From Candidatus Thorarchaeota archaeon (lineage in GTDB: Archaea; Asgardarchaeota; Thorarchaeia; Thorarchaeales; Thorarchaeaceae): a DNA stretch of 62,311 nucleotides. Each line of letters opens with the position of its first letter. Position 1 is the first letter of the stretch. The position numbers and the translations under genes are program-made. Location of the stretch: contig RDNZ01000014.1 of NCBI GenBank assembly GCA_011364905.1, forward strand, positions 1 through 62,311, written 5' to 3'. Below are positions 41,896 to 48,685 of the stretch, one piece after another. The notes beneath the pieces are model-generated. The model saw nothing but the letters and a program-made list of their open reading frames with translations. It was not told where the DNA came from and did not search any database.

Positions 41896-42041
41896 TGCAG
41901 TTCCTCCGACTACTATGAAGGATTACTGAAAGCATAGATAGGAGTTGCGGTCGCGGTGTGAAACGCCTCTAGACTCGGGTTCTTGCGCGATGCGAAGACT
42001 TTATTCATTGGCCAGCCTCACTCGCAAGAAGAGTGGATTCA

Positions 42042-42590
42042 ATGGCAGATGAGGAAAAGATTAGAGTTGAGGCACGAGAAGAGGAAGAAGACGCAGAGCA
42101 AAAGAAAGGGCTCTTCAGACCACTGCCCACCAGAGAAGAGCCAAAATACGTTACAGTCGGTGACCGTCCCCAACCAATCGTGAGAGTTCTTGGAATTTCA
42201 ATGCGCGAGAAAAGAAAGGAACTTCTAATACTAATCCTAATTCCGGCCTTAGTAGCTCTAATAGATACCACAATCTACTCATTTGTTATTACAGCTCAGG
42301 TTCAGAATTCTGTAACCATTGTTTTCCTTTTGCCAGCCATTGCAGCAATCCCAATCGGTCTAACATCACCTGAAGCCAGCAATTCATTAGTTGGAGCCTT
42401 TCTCGCGGATATGTTTTTTTTGCTATTCTTTGTCACGTTTCTTTCAATTCCAGGTCTATTAGTTCCGTCTCTAGGGCTTGGAGGCATCATTGTTAGTAGT
42501 ATTGCCATTTCAATAGGATACTTCATTTTGGTGATTATCGCAACATTCCTCGGTTCGATAATCGGCATAATCATGCATGAGTTCATGTGA
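42042..42590 (+). CDS. Hypothetical membrane protein (~4 TM)
   Basis: Charged N-terminus followed by hydrophobic helices. Confidence 0.75.
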   Translation: MADEEKIRVEAREEEEDAEQKKGLFRPLPTREEPKYVTVGDRPQPIVRVLGISMREKRKELLILILIPALVALIDTTIYSFVITAQVQNSVTIVFLLPAIAAIPIGLTSPEASNSLVGAFLADMFFLLFFVTFLSIPGLLVPSLGLGGIIVSSIAISIGYFILVIIATFLGSIIGIIMHEFM

Positions 42591-42744
42591 AAGTTGAACA
42601 ACTTCATTCTGGACCTCGCGGATGCAAGAGTGTTAGCAATTTCTTCTAGGGAATTCTATAATAGAGCGCCAACCAACGGCTTTGGCAAGATTCAAGAACT
42701 CGTTTCCAATACGAATGTAGAAACCATGAGAGGGTCAGGCTAGA

Positions 42745-43698
42745 GTGAAGATAGGTACCATTGCAAGTCACAGCGCACTGAATATCATTTCAGGAGCCAA
42801 GGCGGAGGGCTTTGATACTCTACTCTACTGCCCTCAGAACCGCGTGAAGTTTTACCAATCATTTGGACTTGATGATTCAATCGTTGAAATAGAGTCATTT
42901 GATGATATCTTGAAGATGGATTTGTCTGAGGTGGTTTTGATACCACATGGATCATTTGTAGCACACATAGGTGCCCAGAAAATTCTCAAGTCCGACCTGA
43001 AGATTTTCGGTAGTAAAGAGCTCCTAAAGTGGGAGAGCAATCGGGATCTAAAAACGAAATTACTGAAAGAAGCTGGCTTTGCCGTACCTAGAGAATTCTT
43101 GGATTTTGGGGAGATTGATTGCCCTGTCATCGCAAAAACTAATGGGGCAGCTGGAGGTGATGGGTACTTCATTGCGGAGAGTGCTTCTGAAATCGAGAAG
43201 ATGATGAATCCAGACCTCCAATATACATTTCAGGAATTTGTTGTTGGAACCAAGGTTTTCGTTACATACTTTCAATCGATGGCAAAAGAACGAACTGAGG
43301 TGTTCGGCGCAGACATACGATACGAAACCGATGCTGACTCTAATCTGCGATTCAATGAGCGACCAAGTTTCGTGGTAGTTGGCAATGTTCCGTTAGTGCT
43401 TCGGGAGTCGATTCTCGCAAAATACTATGATATGGGAGTTGCCTTTGTCAACGCATTCCATAAGCTCGCACAACAGAAAATGGTGGGACCATTCTGCATT
43501 GAAACAATAATCGATAAAAATAAGCAGATTTATAGCTTTGAATTCAGTGGTAGAATTGTAGCAGGAACCAATGTATGGATACCATCTTCCCCATATTCAT
43601 ATGTCCAATTCGGTGAGCCAATGTGGATGGGACGACGGATAGCAATCGAGATTCGTGAGTTAGTGGAGCAAGAAAGGTTAGACCAGGCTCTAGGGTGA
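42745..43698 (+). CDS. purP: PurP-family ATP-grasp (formate-dependent AICAR formyltransferase-like)
   Basis: SHSAL, PHGSF, GGDGYF, GNVPLVLRES, GPFCIE, RIVAGTN. Confidence 0.85.
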   Translation: MKIGTIASHSALNIISGAKAEGFDTLLYCPQNRVKFYQSFGLDDSIVEIESFDDILKMDLSEVVLIPHGSFVAHIGAQKILKSDLKIFGSKELLKWESNRDLKTKLLKEAGFAVPREFLDFGEIDCPVIAKTNGAAGGDGYFIAESASEIEKMMNPDLQYTFQEFVVGTKVFVTYFQSMAKERTEVFGADIRYETDADSNLRFNERPSFVVVGNVPLVLRESILAKYYDMGVAFVNAFHKLAQQKMVGPFCIETIIDKNKQIYSFEFSGRIVAGTNVWIPSSPYSYVQFGEPMWMGRRIAIEIRELVEQERLDQALG

Positions 43699-44786
43699 AG
43701 TTGATGACAGATTCAAAATTGCCAACCATTGGAATGATTGGCTCGCACAGCGCCGAGGAGATCGGAGTAGCGGCGAGGGCAAATGGATTTAGAACAGCTG
43801 TAGTTTGCCAGAGAGGAAGAGAGCGTCTCTATTCTCATTATAATAAGCATCTCTATGATCACATTATTCTACTTGATAAATTCAAAGATATTCTGAAAGA
43901 TGAAATCCAGGAGAAATTAGAGGAGCTAGATACCTTATGGATTCCCAATCGATCTTTTTCCGTCTATGTGGGATATGATGAGATTGAAAGAGAGTTCAAA
44001 ATCCCCATTTACGGAAACAGAATGTTGCTACGTGTTGAGGATAGAAATGCTCCAAAGAATCAATATTGGTTATTGAACAAGTCTGGAATCAGGTTGCCCA
44101 GAGTCTTCAAGCCTAGTGACATAGATAGATTAGTCATAGTGAAAGTTCAGCAAAGGAAAAAGCCTCTTGAACGAGCGTTTTTCTTTGCAAACTCGCCTTC
44201 AGAGTTCGAAGCAGAGAGCCGCTCTTTAATCAATAATGATGTTATCTCCGAGGAGTCTCTTAAATCAGCAACAATTGAGGAATTTGTGATAGCACCACGA
44301 TTCAACGCCAACTTCGAAGCATATGGGATGAGTCGCATTTTCGGGGACCTAGATCTGGTTGGTTTCGACGACCGAGTTCAGACTGGCCTATCTGGACTTC
44401 TCGACCTGCCTGCGAGAGAGCAATTGAAGCTGAAGATCAGGGTGATGAATGAAGAGGTGGGCCACAAGGGTCTGACTATGAGAGAAAGCAAGAAACCACT
44501 TGTTTATGAAGCCGCAGAACGCCTCCTCAAGGGGATTAGGAAATACTATCCACCAAAGATGATAGGTCTTTTTTCGCTTCAAGGAGCAATTACAGAAGAT
44601 TCCGAATTTGTTGTCTTCGATCTTAGTCCACGAGTTCCAGGAGCGCCTTGCGTCGGACCGACGAGTCCGGAGATGAGAAGATTATCACTCAAATATAAGT
44701 GTGAGATAGCTTCACCATTGGATCTCTGTATGTTGGACATTAAATCCGCTGCAAAAGAAAATGCCCTGAATGAGGTGTCGACGTGA
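43695..44786 (+). CDS. PurP paralog (DUF1246/DUF1297 ATP-grasp)
   Basis: GSHSA, PNRSFSVY, ERAFF, EVGH, SPRVPG. Confidence 0.85.
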   Translation: MKLMTDSKLPTIGMIGSHSAEEIGVAARANGFRTAVVCQRGRERLYSHYNKHLYDHIILLDKFKDILKDEIQEKLEELDTLWIPNRSFSVYVGYDEIEREFKIPIYGNRMLLRVEDRNAPKNQYWLLNKSGIRLPRVFKPSDIDRLVIVKVQQRKKPLERAFFFANSPSEFEAESRSLINNDVISEESLKSATIEEFVIAPRFNANFEAYGMSRIFGDLDLVGFDDRVQTGLSGLLDLPAREQLKLKIRVMNEEVGHKGLTMRESKKPLVYEAAERLLKGIRKYYPPKMIGLFSLQGAITEDSEFVVFDLSPRVPGAPCVGPTSPEMRRLSLKYKCEIASPLDLCMLDIKSAAKENALNEVST

Positions 44787-44835
44787 AATCGTACCACACC
44801 TTGAAAGAGGCGATTGAACTCAAGGAGTTGAAACC

Positions 44836-45798
44836 ATGGATCTGATTCATGATGGGAAAACTAGGAAAGTACACCAAGATCCTGAGTCAGCTGATAGGGA
44901 AATAGTCGAGTTTACTGATTCAATCGCTTTGGATGATGAGAAGGCTGAGTCTATCACAGGAAAAGCTGAGCTCGTGTATAGAATGACAGATTTCCTGCTT
45001 GGATATCTTGAAGGCAAGGGAGTTGACACCCACTTCATTCGATCCCTAGAAAGTCCGAAGATACTTGTTCGAAAAGTGGATATCTATCCTGTGTTAGTGG
45101 TGTGTAGGAACATCGCTACAAAATCATTCTGTCTCCGCTCTGGTGTAGACGAGGGGACAGTTCTTGAGAAACCTCTTGTCGAGTTCTTTTTGATAAGTGA
45201 CCGTTTGCATAATCCGCTGATAACTGAACGAGCAATCGAAACCATTGGACTAGTGAAAGATGAAATTTTGCATTTCATGAGAGCCGTGACTCTTTCTGTC
45301 AATTATTATCTTGTTGAACTCCTTAAGCAGCAAAGTCTGGTACTTGCTGATTTCAGACTTGAGTTTGGTATAACAAAAGCAGGACATATTGTTGTGGCAG
45401 ATGAGCTATCATTGGACAATATGAGTATCTGGGACAAGGGTGCGCCATACATGAATTTCGACGAAATCAAAGGGAAAGAGGAAGAATTCATCCAAGCCTA
45501 TGGAAAACTTGTCGATTTAATTACTAGAACAAAACCGGAGGAAGTTAGTAATCGAAATGAAATCCTTCAGGTAATAGTCAAACCCAAAGATGGAATTAGG
45601 AATCCTCCTGGCGAGGTGACAAAAAAGATGCTTGTTCGAATGGGATTTGGCGATGCAGAGGATGTTCGAGTCGGAAAAGTATTCAACATTATATTACGAA
45701 GACCCATCACTTCCGAAATACTGCATCAGCTCAATATCATGAACATCAAACTACTGTCTAATCCGATATCTGAGAAACACGAGGTGAGTTATGGCTAA
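44836..45798 (+). CDS. purC: Degenerate SAICAR synthetase (PurC) fused to C-terminal PurS
   Basis: GKT, THF, RN, DFRLEFG, ADE, WD skeleton; C-terminal ~80 aa PurS-like (KPKDGIRNPPG...VRVGKVF...LLSNPISE); several catalytic residues substituted. Confidence 0.85.
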   Translation: MDLIHDGKTRKVHQDPESADREIVEFTDSIALDDEKAESITGKAELVYRMTDFLLGYLEGKGVDTHFIRSLESPKILVRKVDIYPVLVVCRNIATKSFCLRSGVDEGTVLEKPLVEFFLISDRLHNPLITERAIETIGLVKDEILHFMRAVTLSVNYYLVELLKQQSLVLADFRLEFGITKAGHIVVADELSLDNMSIWDKGAPYMNFDEIKGKEEEFIQAYGKLVDLITRTKPEEVSNRNEILQVIVKPKDGIRNPPGEVTKKMLVRMGFGDAEDVRVGKVFNIILRRPITSEILHQLNIMNIKLLSNPISEKHEVSYG

Positions 45799-46490
45799 TG
45801 TCTATTGCTGTTATCAGATTTCCAGGAACCAATAATGATGATGATGTCATGAGAGCGCTCCGCCAGATTCCAGCTGCAAAACCGTATCTTGTCCCAAGCA
45901 GAAAGGGACTTGCAGGACTTCAGGACGCGGAAGGTATCATAATCCCTGGAGGATTCTCCTATGGGGATTATATGAGAGCGGGAGCAGTCGCAGCCATGGA
46001 AGTCATCAGCGCGGGAATAAGGGATTTGGCAGAAGATGGAAAGCCAGTACTCGGAATCAGCAACGGTTTTCAGATTCTTGCGGAAGCCGGCTTACTACCG
46101 GGAGCACTCTTACCAAATGTTTCTGCACGATTCATTTGTAGATGGGTTTACCTAAGAGTCAGCGATCAGCCTTCGATTTTCACAGAGAATCTTGAAAATG
46201 CAGTCATTCGTCTACCAATAGCTCATGCAGAAGGAAATTACTTCTGTTCTGAGGACTATTTGATTGCTCTTGAAGGTGAAAAACGAATCCCATTCAAATA
46301 CTGTAATGCACAAGGGGAGATTACTGAGGACTCTAATCCAAATGGGTCAATAGAAAACATAGCTGGGGTTATTAATCAGAAAGGCAACGTACTTGGCATG
46401 ATGTCTCATCCTGAACGAGCGACACGACAAATTCTAGGATCGACCGACGGTCTAGAAATCCTGGAGAACTTCGTGAGGGCAATTCGATGA
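45798..46490 (+). CDS. purQ: FGAM synthase glutaminase subunit PurQ with nucleophile Cys->Ser
   Basis: FPGTN, PGGFSYGDY, GISNGFQIL (canonical GICNGFQ), AHAEG, NPNGS, MMSHPER. Confidence 0.92.
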   Translation: MSIAVIRFPGTNNDDDVMRALRQIPAAKPYLVPSRKGLAGLQDAEGIIIPGGFSYGDYMRAGAVAAMEVISAGIRDLAEDGKPVLGISNGFQILAEAGLLPGALLPNVSARFICRWVYLRVSDQPSIFTENLENAVIRLPIAHAEGNYFCSEDYLIALEGEKRIPFKYCNAQGEITEDSNPNGSIENIAGVINQKGNVLGMMSHPERATRQILGSTDGLEILENFVRAIR

Positions 46491-48652
46491 TAAGCAAAGA
46501 TGAACTTCAGATTGCCACAAAGACCCTAGGACGAGATTTCACAGAAACAGAGCTAAGAATGATTGAAGCCCTCTGGTCAGAGCATTGCAGCTATAAAAGC
46601 AGCAAACGATGGTTCTATCTTTTCAAAACAACTGCAGACAATGTTGCGCTTGGAGTTGGAGAGGGTGCAGGTTTGTTTGACATTGGTGGTGGATATTATG
46701 CTGGCGTGTCTATGGATTCCCACAATCATCCTAGTCAGATTGATCCCTATAATGGAGCTGGATCGGGCATCGGTGGTACTATTAGAAATGTGATTTCACA
46801 AGGATGCAAGGCGGTGGGCCTTATGAATTGTTTGCGATTCGGGCACCCACAGAAACCAAAAAACGCACTCTCTCTATCAAATGCAGTTCGAGGAATATCT
46901 GACTATGGGAATAGTGTTGGAATTCCTATGGTTGGAGGAGAGATGGAATTTGACGAATCATTCGAGGACAACTGCTTAGTGAATATAGTATGCATTGGAT
47001 GCGTAAAATCAGAAAACGTTGTACGAAGTATTGCTCGAACACCAGGTCACCATATTGTCATTTTTGGGTCCAAAACAGGATGCGATGGTGTAGGTGGTGT
47101 TATCTTTGCTTCGAATGTTATCTCAGACTCAAAAGATTGGAGTACATCTGCAATACAAATCGGCGATTCACTAGCGGAGAAAGTACTCATAGACACCTTG
47201 ACAGAGCTTCTGGAAGAGCATCTTATAGACGGTCTTCAAGACATTGGGGGTGGAGGATTGGCTGCTGCAGCAGGTGATCTTGCACATTCAGGAGGTACTG
47301 GAGTAGAAATCGAACTAGACAAGGTGCCAACTCGAGGAGTTGTGAATCCCTCTGATATTATCATATCCGAATCTCAAGAGAGAATGCTTGCCATTATCGC
47401 TCCAACTAACATGGACCGTGTAAAAACCCTACTCGAGAAAAACGATACACCATATGCTGTGATTGGGAAAGTGACAGATGATGGTTACTACACAGCGAAG
47501 TATGAGGGAGAGATCATAGCTAAACTCCCAATAAGCCTCTTAGTAGATGGGGTTCTCATTCCGGAGAGAGTTGAAGGGAAAATCCCTTCTCAGACAGATT
47601 CGCTCTCATGGTTCAAAGAACCTGATGATTATGGCTCTGCGATAATGAACCTAATCAGTTCGGTGAATATTTGCGACCGATCATGGATTTACAGCCAATA
47701 TGACCAGCATGTTCAATCGAACACTGTTGTTGATATTGGGCAGAATGCAGGTGTACTGGAATTCCCAAATGGTAGATTGCTTGCATTTACCAGTGATTGC
47801 AACTCCTTTTGGTGCAAACTCGATCCACAAGTTGGAACTGCGAATTCTGCAGCAGAATCTCTAAGAAACATTGTTTCTATGGGTGCCAGACCAATCTTCA
47901 TAGCGAATTGCCTTAATTTTGGGAGTCCTGAAAAGCCTGATTCGTATGCTCAGTTTGTTGAATCAGTAAGAGGACTTGGAAGGTTCTCTCATGACTTCAA
48001 CATCCCGATTATTGGAGGAAATGTTTCTCTCTACAATGAAGCTCTAGTTGATGGGCAGAATAGAAGGATAAATCCGTCCCCACAGATCATGCTTGCAGGA
48101 ATCTTCAAAGAGAAGTTTTCACCGATCAAGCGAAATCTAGTCACACCATGGGCCAATATTTTCCTCGTGGGAGAAACATTCCCGGAACTCAACGGAAGCG
48201 AGTTTCAGAGGGTCATAGTTGGTGAGGTCAAAGGCGAACCTCCGAAGTACAGACCAAACTGGGAGAAAAAGACAATGGATGCAATTCTTGAATCGCATGA
48301 CAGAGGGCTGATTCGTTCATGTAATAACGTAGGGCGTGGCGGCATAGCGATAGCTCTTATGAAAATGGCTCTGAGAAGCGAGTATGGATTCAAATTAAAT
48401 ATGGAATACATTCCAGGAACTGTGAACAGCTTGGCTCAGAGCCTGTTTTCAGAAACATCATCTCGCTATTTAGCAGAAGTGACAGAAAGCAACCAACCTG
48501 AGTTCTTATCGATTCTAGAAAAACATGAGCTGGCCACTTGTGAACTTGGACTAACCACATTGGAACCGACCGCAGATTTTGGACGTTTCACAATTCCATT
48601 GGAAAAGGCCAAAATGGAATTCAGTGATGGGCTTGGGAAATATCTTGGATGA
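46487..48652 (+). CDS. purL: FGAM synthase synthetase subunit (small PurL), divergent
   Basis: WSEHCSYKSS, SHNHPS, SESQERM, QYD, CLNFGSPE, GGNVSLYNE. Confidence 0.92.
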   Translation: MISKDELQIATKTLGRDFTETELRMIEALWSEHCSYKSSKRWFYLFKTTADNVALGVGEGAGLFDIGGGYYAGVSMDSHNHPSQIDPYNGAGSGIGGTIRNVISQGCKAVGLMNCLRFGHPQKPKNALSLSNAVRGISDYGNSVGIPMVGGEMEFDESFEDNCLVNIVCIGCVKSENVVRSIARTPGHHIVIFGSKTGCDGVGGVIFASNVISDSKDWSTSAIQIGDSLAEKVLIDTLTELLEEHLIDGLQDIGGGGLAAAAGDLAHSGGTGVEIELDKVPTRGVVNPSDIIISESQERMLAIIAPTNMDRVKTLLEKNDTPYAVIGKVTDDGYYTAKYEGEIIAKLPISLLVDGVLIPERVEGKIPSQTDSLSWFKEPDDYGSAIMNLISSVNICDRSWIYSQYDQHVQSNTVVDIGQNAGVLEFPNGRLLAFTSDCNSFWCKLDPQVGTANSAAESLRNIVSMGARPIFIANCLNFGSPEKPDSYAQFVESVRGLGRFSHDFNIPIIGGNVSLYNEALVDGQNRRINPSPQIMLAGIFKEKFSPIKRNLVTPWANIFLVGETFPELNGSEFQRVIVGEVKGEPPKYRPNWEKKTMDAILESHDRGLIRSCNNVGRGGIAIALMKMALRSEYGFKLNMEYIPGTVNSLAQSLFSETSSRYLAEVTESNQPEFLSILEKHELATCELGLTTLEPTADFGRFTIPLEKAKMEFSDGLGKYLG

Positions 48653-48685
48653 TGAATTAGAAATATCCAGATGAGGAGGAGCGCG

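Follow-up and report, generated by a model that had tools for sequence, protein, structure and literature searches.

The closest described counterparts of the locus analysed here are the small-type formylglycinamidine ribonucleotide (FGAM) synthases, PurL-PurQ-PurS2 complexes known from Thermotoga maritima (3D54/2HS0) and Thermus thermophilus (3VIU). FGAM synthase has also given rise to pseudoenzymes, the vFGARAT/vGAT tegument proteins of gammaherpesviruses (PMC7605207), and among archaea the purine auxotroph Korarchaeum cryptofilum keeps a purP pair and purB (PMC3261824, section 5). In this study, we examined a stretch of 62,311 nucleotides (the window) from a Candidatus Thorarchaeota archaeon (GenBank assembly GCA_011364905.1, contig RDNZ01000014.1, positions 1 to 62,311), in which three adjacent genes, a purC::purS fusion, purQ and purL (the trio), occupy positions 44836-48652. 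We consider it probable that the trio is the surviving core of a pur operon, catalytically disabled and kept by purifying selection for a non-catalytic role.

44836..45798, + strand: purC::purS fusion; 320 amino acids (aa), intact open reading frame (ORF), Pfam PF01259 and PF02700
45798..46490, + strand: purQ; 230 aa, intact ORF, Ser88 in place of the nucleophile Cys, Pro203Ser, His204 and Glu206 kept
46487..48652, + strand: purL; 721 aa, intact ORF, Asp77, Asn101, Lys196, Cys199 and Asn474, with changes mostly in residues 1-340

The trio and its described relatives

The trio is similar to the small-type FGAM synthases (TIGR01736/TIGR01737/TIGR00302) in its full-length homology, its gene order and its translational coupling. 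As the start and stop codons overlap at the purC::purS/purQ and purQ/purL junctions (TAATG and ATGA, respectively), the three genes look translationally coupled. PurL passes the TIGR01736 model (736 bits, cut-off 526) and PurQ passes TIGR01737 (291 bits, cut-off 178). In the fusion protein, PurC spans approximately residues 1-235 and PurS residues 245-317; the PurS domain passes TIGR00302 (41.9 bits, cut-off 39) and fails NF004630 (47.6 bits, cut-off 75), while the PurC domain matches PF01259 and remains, at 128 bits, under the 189.9-bit cut-off of TIGR00081. In contrast to the small-type enzymes, the window proteins have no Cys nucleophile, carry an Asn in the DX4GAXP motif and a TGCDG segment, and have PurS fused to PurC, and the genome is without other de novo purine genes. 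The fusion itself is ordinary and Thor-wide, being found in about 115 protein clusters with catalytic residues that are 90-99% conserved.

The full purine operons of Thor-type congeners (e.g., genome G002, contig L058) contain orthologues of the trio at the same locus, with the same PurC::PurS fusion and the same purP pair. They differ from the window in that they also have purN, purF, purE::M, purD and guaA, and in that their catalytic residues are all canonical.

The nearest functional analogy is with vFGARAT/vGAT, relatives of FGAM synthase that are no longer catalytic and are retained for a role other than an enzymatic one. However, vFGARAT/vGAT consist of one chain, are of the large type and target immune factors of the host, whereas the window proteins are cellular, belong to the split three-gene type and have a seemingly dead PurC attached. 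With 47 bits against TIGR01739 (vFGARAT, cut-off 716), they are not members of that family. K. cryptofilum is similar in that it has lost the de novo pathway and kept a few pur homologues, including the purP pair, but neither retained PurL, PurQ, PurS or PurC nor catalytic-site erosion is described for it. A literature search found no published dead PurL, PurQ, PurS or PurC retained in archaea or bacteria. From these comparisons, the trio appears to be a cellular, split-type pseudoenzyme complex derived from FGAM synthase, with a dead PurC and with all evolutionary stages present in one genus.

Catalytic residues and selection

Residues were mapped on T. thermophilus PurL (3VIU), T. maritima PurQ (3D54_D) and five PurC structures including that of E. 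coli (2GQR), and congeners with a complete purine pathway served as a second reference set for substitutions. In PurQ, the Cys-His-Glu triad is incomplete: the Cys is replaced by Ser (C88S, codon AGC, 46059-46061), the His and the Glu are retained, and the residue preceding the triad His is changed as well (P203S). PurL carries E77D in the ESHNH motif, D101N (46787-46789), T196K, R199C (47081-47083) and D474N. D101 is the Asp of DX4GAXP, the ATP motif of the PurM superfamily (PMC13013826), which the window protein no longer matches. T196K and R199C alter the TGRDG segment (now TGCDG) at the start of the catalytic loop, which has further changes relative to both 3VIU and the full-operon congeners; this loop closes over the intermediate and serves as an allosteric switch (PMC7124931, PMC13013826). 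The PurL motifs SHNHPS, SESQERM and GGNVSLYNE are kept.

In PurC, the substitutions are, in E. coli numbering, K13R, E90L, K123I, D129N, K177R, R199S (45424-45426), D210N, K211F and R215K; the eroded ligand residues are Leu87, Ile120, Asn126, Arg174, Ser197, Asn207, Phe208 and Lys212 in the protein's own numbering. R94, S100, D175, E179 and R199 are fully conserved in archaeal PurC (PMC3261824, section 12). Only R199, the Arg that binds carboxyaminoimidazole ribonucleotide (CAIR), is lost from this set in the window, where it is Ser; the other four are retained, as is D191. R199 is Arg in 100 of 107 PurC::PurS fusions. Taken together, the alignments show that PurC::PurS, PurQ and PurL lack residues that their reactions would need.

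An earlier note on this DNA had described full-length but eroded proteins in intact frames, which the ORFs, their overlaps and the structure and congener alignments bear out. Most substitutions in its motif list were confirmed as well, but two of them are typical of the genus and not erosion. The Lys of KIESHNH in PurL, listed there as changed to Ser, is already Ala in complete-operon congeners (VAMESHNH), and NPPG in PurS is also the form found in full-pathway congeners.

Because dS between species is mostly saturated, we used strain-level contigs to measure selection. The set comprised the window and six further contigs of its lineage, each from another sample (ENA and JGI metagenomes), with PurQ sequences 94-99% identical to that of the window. 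All six contigs have the same trimmed architecture and intact frames of 321, 230 and 721 aa, and the key substitutions are common to all of them; the substitutions are thus shared by relatives, as the note had proposed to check, and are not private to this assembly. The ratio of nonsynonymous to synonymous divergence (dN/dS), taken as mean dN over mean dS for the 21 strain pairs, with PurL dS reaching 0.64, is 0.16 for purC::S, 0.07 for purQ and 0.087 for purL. The values for the purP paralogues are 0.11 (purPa) and 0.087 (purPb), and those of neighbouring genes are 0.11 (ACS), 0.03 (IDI), 0.07 (the gene of histone deacetylase (HDAC) type), 0.10 (g8) and 0.06 (g6). Two other trimmed lineages give 0.08-0.22, and pairs of full-operon congeners give 0.09-0.13. 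The trio is under purifying selection as strong as that on neighbouring housekeeping genes. The note's proposal of selection on the fold, as opposed to random decay, is upheld by these values and by the 88% of PurL sites invariant in full-pathway congeners that are still conserved.

The constraint is unevenly distributed. Polymorphism among strains affects 1-8% of the sites that are invariant in full-operon congeners and unchanged in the window lineage, 30-60% of the invariant sites that have changed, and 15-25% of the sites that vary among full-operon congeners, which indicates that some sites that were once essential have been freed from constraint while the rest are held. In PurL, the changed invariant sites number 46 of 241 in the N-terminal (catalytic) half and 9 of 214 in the C-terminal half (Fisher p = 5.5e-7). 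The N-terminal excess has the same direction in nine of nine trimmed lineages, with a hot spot at residues 181-300.

The PurC pocket varies even among strains, with Leu or Ser at position E90, Ile, Lys or Glu at K123, and Arg at E179 in three of them. One strain has Asn at position 88 of PurQ through an AGC-to-AAC change. Such drift at the PurC pocket and at the PurQ nucleophile fits lost catalysis and not a new catalytic mechanism. The possibility of new chemistry, which had been raised in the note, is disfavoured by the drift of the PurQ Ser to Asn or Ala, by the loss of the triad His or Glu in relatives, and by the loss of the Mg-binding Glu of PurC in sister strains. Ser as a new nucleophile in a Ser-His-Glu hydrolase is likewise disfavoured, as the relatives show Ser to Asn or Ala, His to Tyr or Gln, and Glu to Asp.

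Three operon states in one genus

The source genome is a metagenome-assembled genome (MAG), 81% complete and in 95 contigs. The genes purC, purQ and purL are single-copy in it, and a search for second canonical copies, another of the checks proposed earlier, found none. A genome-wide search for the families of purF, purD, purM, purE, guaA and purO did not find them and returned weak paralogue matches only. In the window lineage, purN, purF, purE::M, purD and guaA are gone from their operon positions by synteny. The context of a de novo FGAM synthase, in which formylglycinamide ribonucleotide (FGAR) is supplied and FGAM is consumed, was not found. The features that flank the trio are as follows.

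42745..43698, + strand: purP paralogue a (purPa); kept in the window lineage, mildly changed
43695..44786, + strand: purP paralogue b (purPb); kept in the window lineage
42591..44835, no strand: upstream junction; by synteny, the purN-purF position of full-operon congeners is a 154-bp gap (42591-42744) between g3 and purPa
48653..48670, no strand: downstream junction; the HDAC-type gene follows purL directly, while purE::M-purD-guaA intervene in full-operon congeners

We compared 28 species genomes of the genus at this one locus, from g3, which lies next to a type-2 isopentenyl diphosphate (IPP) isomerase gene, to the HDAC-type gene. In state A (full), found in nine genomes and two fragmentary ones, the order is purN-purF-purPa-purPb-purC::S-purQ-purL-purE::M-purD-guaA. 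In state B (trimmed), purC::S-purQ-purL is always retained, with the purP pair in the window and G005, without it in G014, G010 and G041, and with guaA in G018 and G021. In state C (empty), which is found in eight genomes, some of them 92-97% complete, g3 adjoins the HDAC-type gene with a gap of 13-166 bp. On FastTree trees of ten flanking genes and of the trio genes themselves, the three states are intermixed, with a minimum of four or five origins for state B and of five for state C.

The states were reached by deletion, with differing breakpoints, as remnants of deleted genes remain in two lineages. By tblastn, the scar in G014 retains 42 codons from the end of purF and 34 from the start of purPa, and that in the G018/L095 lineage retains purF codons 393-497 and approximately the last 19 codons of purD. 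A tblastn search for remnants of the deleted genes in the window detected none. We also considered that the Ser variant had arisen only once, or that a dead operon had spread by recombination, and rejected both, since the gene tree follows the flank tree, both Ser codon families occur and the breakpoints differ. An apparent frameshift in PurL of G043 was also rejected as a sign of decay, as it is a scaffold gap of 10 N.

The loss of catalytic residues recurs in the trimmed operons, and within the genus PurQ without the Cys was seen in these operons alone. Where PurQ is assembled, Ser replaces Cys88 in six of seven trimmed-operon congeners vs. none of the ten full-operon congeners, a distribution far from random. 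Four more non-Cys PurQ proteins from public metagenomes, all in trimmed operons, carry Ser (twice), Ser with His to Gln, and Ala with Glu to Asp. The Ser codon is AGC in the window lineage, AGT in G018/G019/L095 and in G010/L096, TCC in G005 and TCA in G041. Because AGY and TCN codons are not silently interconvertible, and because the close relatives G005 and G010 took different routes, the Cys-to-Ser change appears to have occurred at least three times, and probably four times, independently. Ser accounts for two of the seven non-stop replacements that a TGY codon can reach in a single step, yet it was the outcome in four of four cases, which suggests a continuing need for a small residue at the nucleophile elbow.

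Other catalytic positions behave similarly. R199 or D200 of PurL is changed in five trimmed-operon congeners with five outcomes (R199 to Cys, Pro, Asn or His, and D200Y), D474N has at least two origins, and E90 of PurC was replaced four times, by Leu, Gly, Asn and Met. In leave-one-out counts at sites invariant in state A, changes in PurL amount to 0.5-3.2% in state-A genomes, 4.3-14.8% in state-B genomes and 12.2% in the window; the corresponding figures are 0-6.1%, 4.5-24.8% and 20.6% for PurC::S, and 0-3.8%, 4.2-11.9% and 7.4% for PurQ. Erosion of the three proteins increases jointly across lineages.

Several observations concern genes around the trio. In the full-operon genome G002, L058:15572-17011 encodes a PurE::PurM fusion of 480 aa (TIGR01162 and TIGR00878), with purD and guaA next to it downstream; the window lineage has lost the entire block by deletion. 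Another full-operon genome, G007, has an in-frame TAA in PurL (L047:2630-2690) with no N run nearby, which could be a real nonsense mutation or, in this 460-contig MAG, a sequencing error. In one trimmed lineage (L094:8890-10501 and the contig of P0052), purL is separated from the HDAC-type gene by an inserted ORF of 112 aa and a gene of the arylsulfotransferase family. In G018, a short contig (C231:3099-3569, L035) contains a partial second PurQ-like match with the canonical Cys and 43% identity; as the genome has 7% contamination, this could be a paralogue or contamination.

Both purP paralogues have a dN/dS of approximately 0.1, and each has about 10 changes at genus-invariant sites, Asp-to-Asn changes among them. 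In a purine auxotroph, the two PurP paralogues may recycle aminoimidazole carboxamide ribonucleotide (AICAR) from histidine synthesis. PurO (PF07826) was not found in any of the five genomes searched, one full-operon genome included, which leaves the final step to IMP with no assigned enzyme. Upstream, g3 (185-aa ORF, window 42033-42590), between the IPP isomerase gene and the pur locus, has no Pfam or NCBIfam match; it is present in all 28 congeners regardless of operon state, and its strain-level dN/dS of 0.28 is the highest among the neighbours.

Beyond the genus, we surveyed PurQ in the best 150 representatives of 50%-identity clusters (P0241-P0390). Among these, the nucleophile position is Cys in 126, Gly in 19, Ser in 2, Asp in 1 and Ala in 1. 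The representatives without the nucleophile (23 of 150, mostly Gly) include one annotated PurQ in a Coriobacteriia MAG. A bacterial contig, L097:8254-16909 (Logan SRR28283476), has the order purB-purS-purQ-purL-purF-purN-purH-purD, with a truncated PurH of 197 aa, Gly at the PurQ nucleophile, and no purC or purM; this appears to be a further case of partial pur operon decay with a dead PurQ.

A proposed non-catalytic role and its alternatives

The retention of a disabled core would be explained as follows. In this lineage, the genes for the other steps of purine biosynthesis were deleted, and the window locus would be what survives of their operon. PurQ has lost the glutaminase nucleophile, PurL the Asp of its ATP motif and the Arg of its catalytic loop, and PurC the Arg that binds CAIR; the genes have nevertheless stayed intact under purifying selection. 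They presumably still fold and assemble as a complex of the PurL-PurQ-(PurC::PurS)2 type with a non-catalytic role. Binding of glutamine and adenine nucleotide and/or scaffolding would be the most plausible role, because conservation extends over the glutamine pocket, except for its nucleophile, and over the C-terminal half of PurL, which is not catalytic. The canonical complex of Bacillus subtilis needs glutamine and Mg-ADP to form. Two marks of a pseudoenzyme were found in the trio, namely the loss of essential catalytic residues and purifying selection after that loss.

Some observations weigh against this explanation. The trio is missing from eight of the 28 congeners through at least five loss events, which makes its role, whatever it may be, dispensable. 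Erosion is graded, as G014, G018 and G019 have one or few catalytic changes, and some trimmed lineages may keep partial activity. In addition, the dN/dS values are exclusively pairwise NG86 estimates, and the sensor or scaffold role is deduced from which parts are conserved.

If the genes were instead relics without function, their pathway lost and their own deletion still to come, the constraint on them would be a by-product, such as the avoidance of misfolding in expressed proteins or of polar effects downstream. A broken purine pathway, frequent complete loss of the trio in the genus, stepwise increase of erosion across lineages, and a nucleophile-less PurQ in another decayed operon, of bacterial origin, all speak for such a scenario. 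However, dN/dS of 0.07-0.16 with dS up to 0.64, like that of housekeeping neighbours, is seen in three independent lineages, and, as a rough estimate, a neutral frame of 721 codons would be expected to gain tens of stops, whereas seven of seven strains keep all frames. The relic scenario is also made unlikely by changes that affect only some sites and, in PurL, only one half of the protein, and by independent deletions that repeatedly left exactly purC::S, purQ and purL.

A further alternative is that the proteins are still enzymes. The trio could be an FGAM synthase that uses ammonia and in which PurQ is structural, or have a second (moonlighting) activity on another substrate, also present in full-operon congeners, that outlasted the pathway. 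Purifying selection is compatible with any retained function, and alternative activities of PurC have been noted as possible (PMC3261824, section 12); PurC-like Asp-ligation chemistry in methanopterin synthesis is one that has been suggested. The mildly eroded G018, G019 and G014 retain nearly all catalytic residues of PurL and PurC, and residual or alternative activity is possible in them. Judging from the residues concerned, it is unlikely in the window lineage: although the window PurC keeps R94, S100, D175, E179 and D191, sister strains have the Mg-binding Glu replaced (E179R) and other pocket residues variable, the DX4GAXP Asp and the catalytic-loop Arg of PurL are replaced, and the PurQ nucleophile position has moved from Ser to Asn or Ala, with the triad His or Glu lost in relatives. 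Moreover, the genome has no source of FGAR or CAIR left, and variability is now highest at the positions of the former active sites. On balance, retained enzymatic activity is an improbable explanation of the trio. Assembly or sequencing errors, or substitutions private to this 81%-complete, 95-contig MAG, are refuted by identical substitutions in the six contigs from six other samples and by related ones in other species.

A broader and more tentative possibility extends the proposed non-catalytic role of the trio: FGAM synthase may have been turned repeatedly and convergently into a non-catalytic glutamine/adenylate-binding sensor or scaffold in purine auxotrophs, both Asgard archaea and bacteria, with this genus keeping every intermediate stage.

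Pseudoenzymes have been much studied in eukaryotes and viruses, but hardly in archaea and bacteria. Public records name the genes described here as ordinary PurQ, PurL and PurC, and metabolic reconstructions of Asgard archaea could wrongly credit the trio with steps of purine synthesis. With PurQ proteins devoid of the nucleophile making up approximately one in seven of the nearest cluster representatives, the phenomenon may be common. In this genus, one and the same locus forms a natural time series, from the full operon through the trimmed operon with a disabled core to the empty site, with replicated independent transitions, convergent loss of the same catalytic residues and measurable purifying selection afterwards. 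It makes testable the route by which a metabolic enzyme complex becomes a non-catalytic protein, and the role of a dead FGAM synthase.

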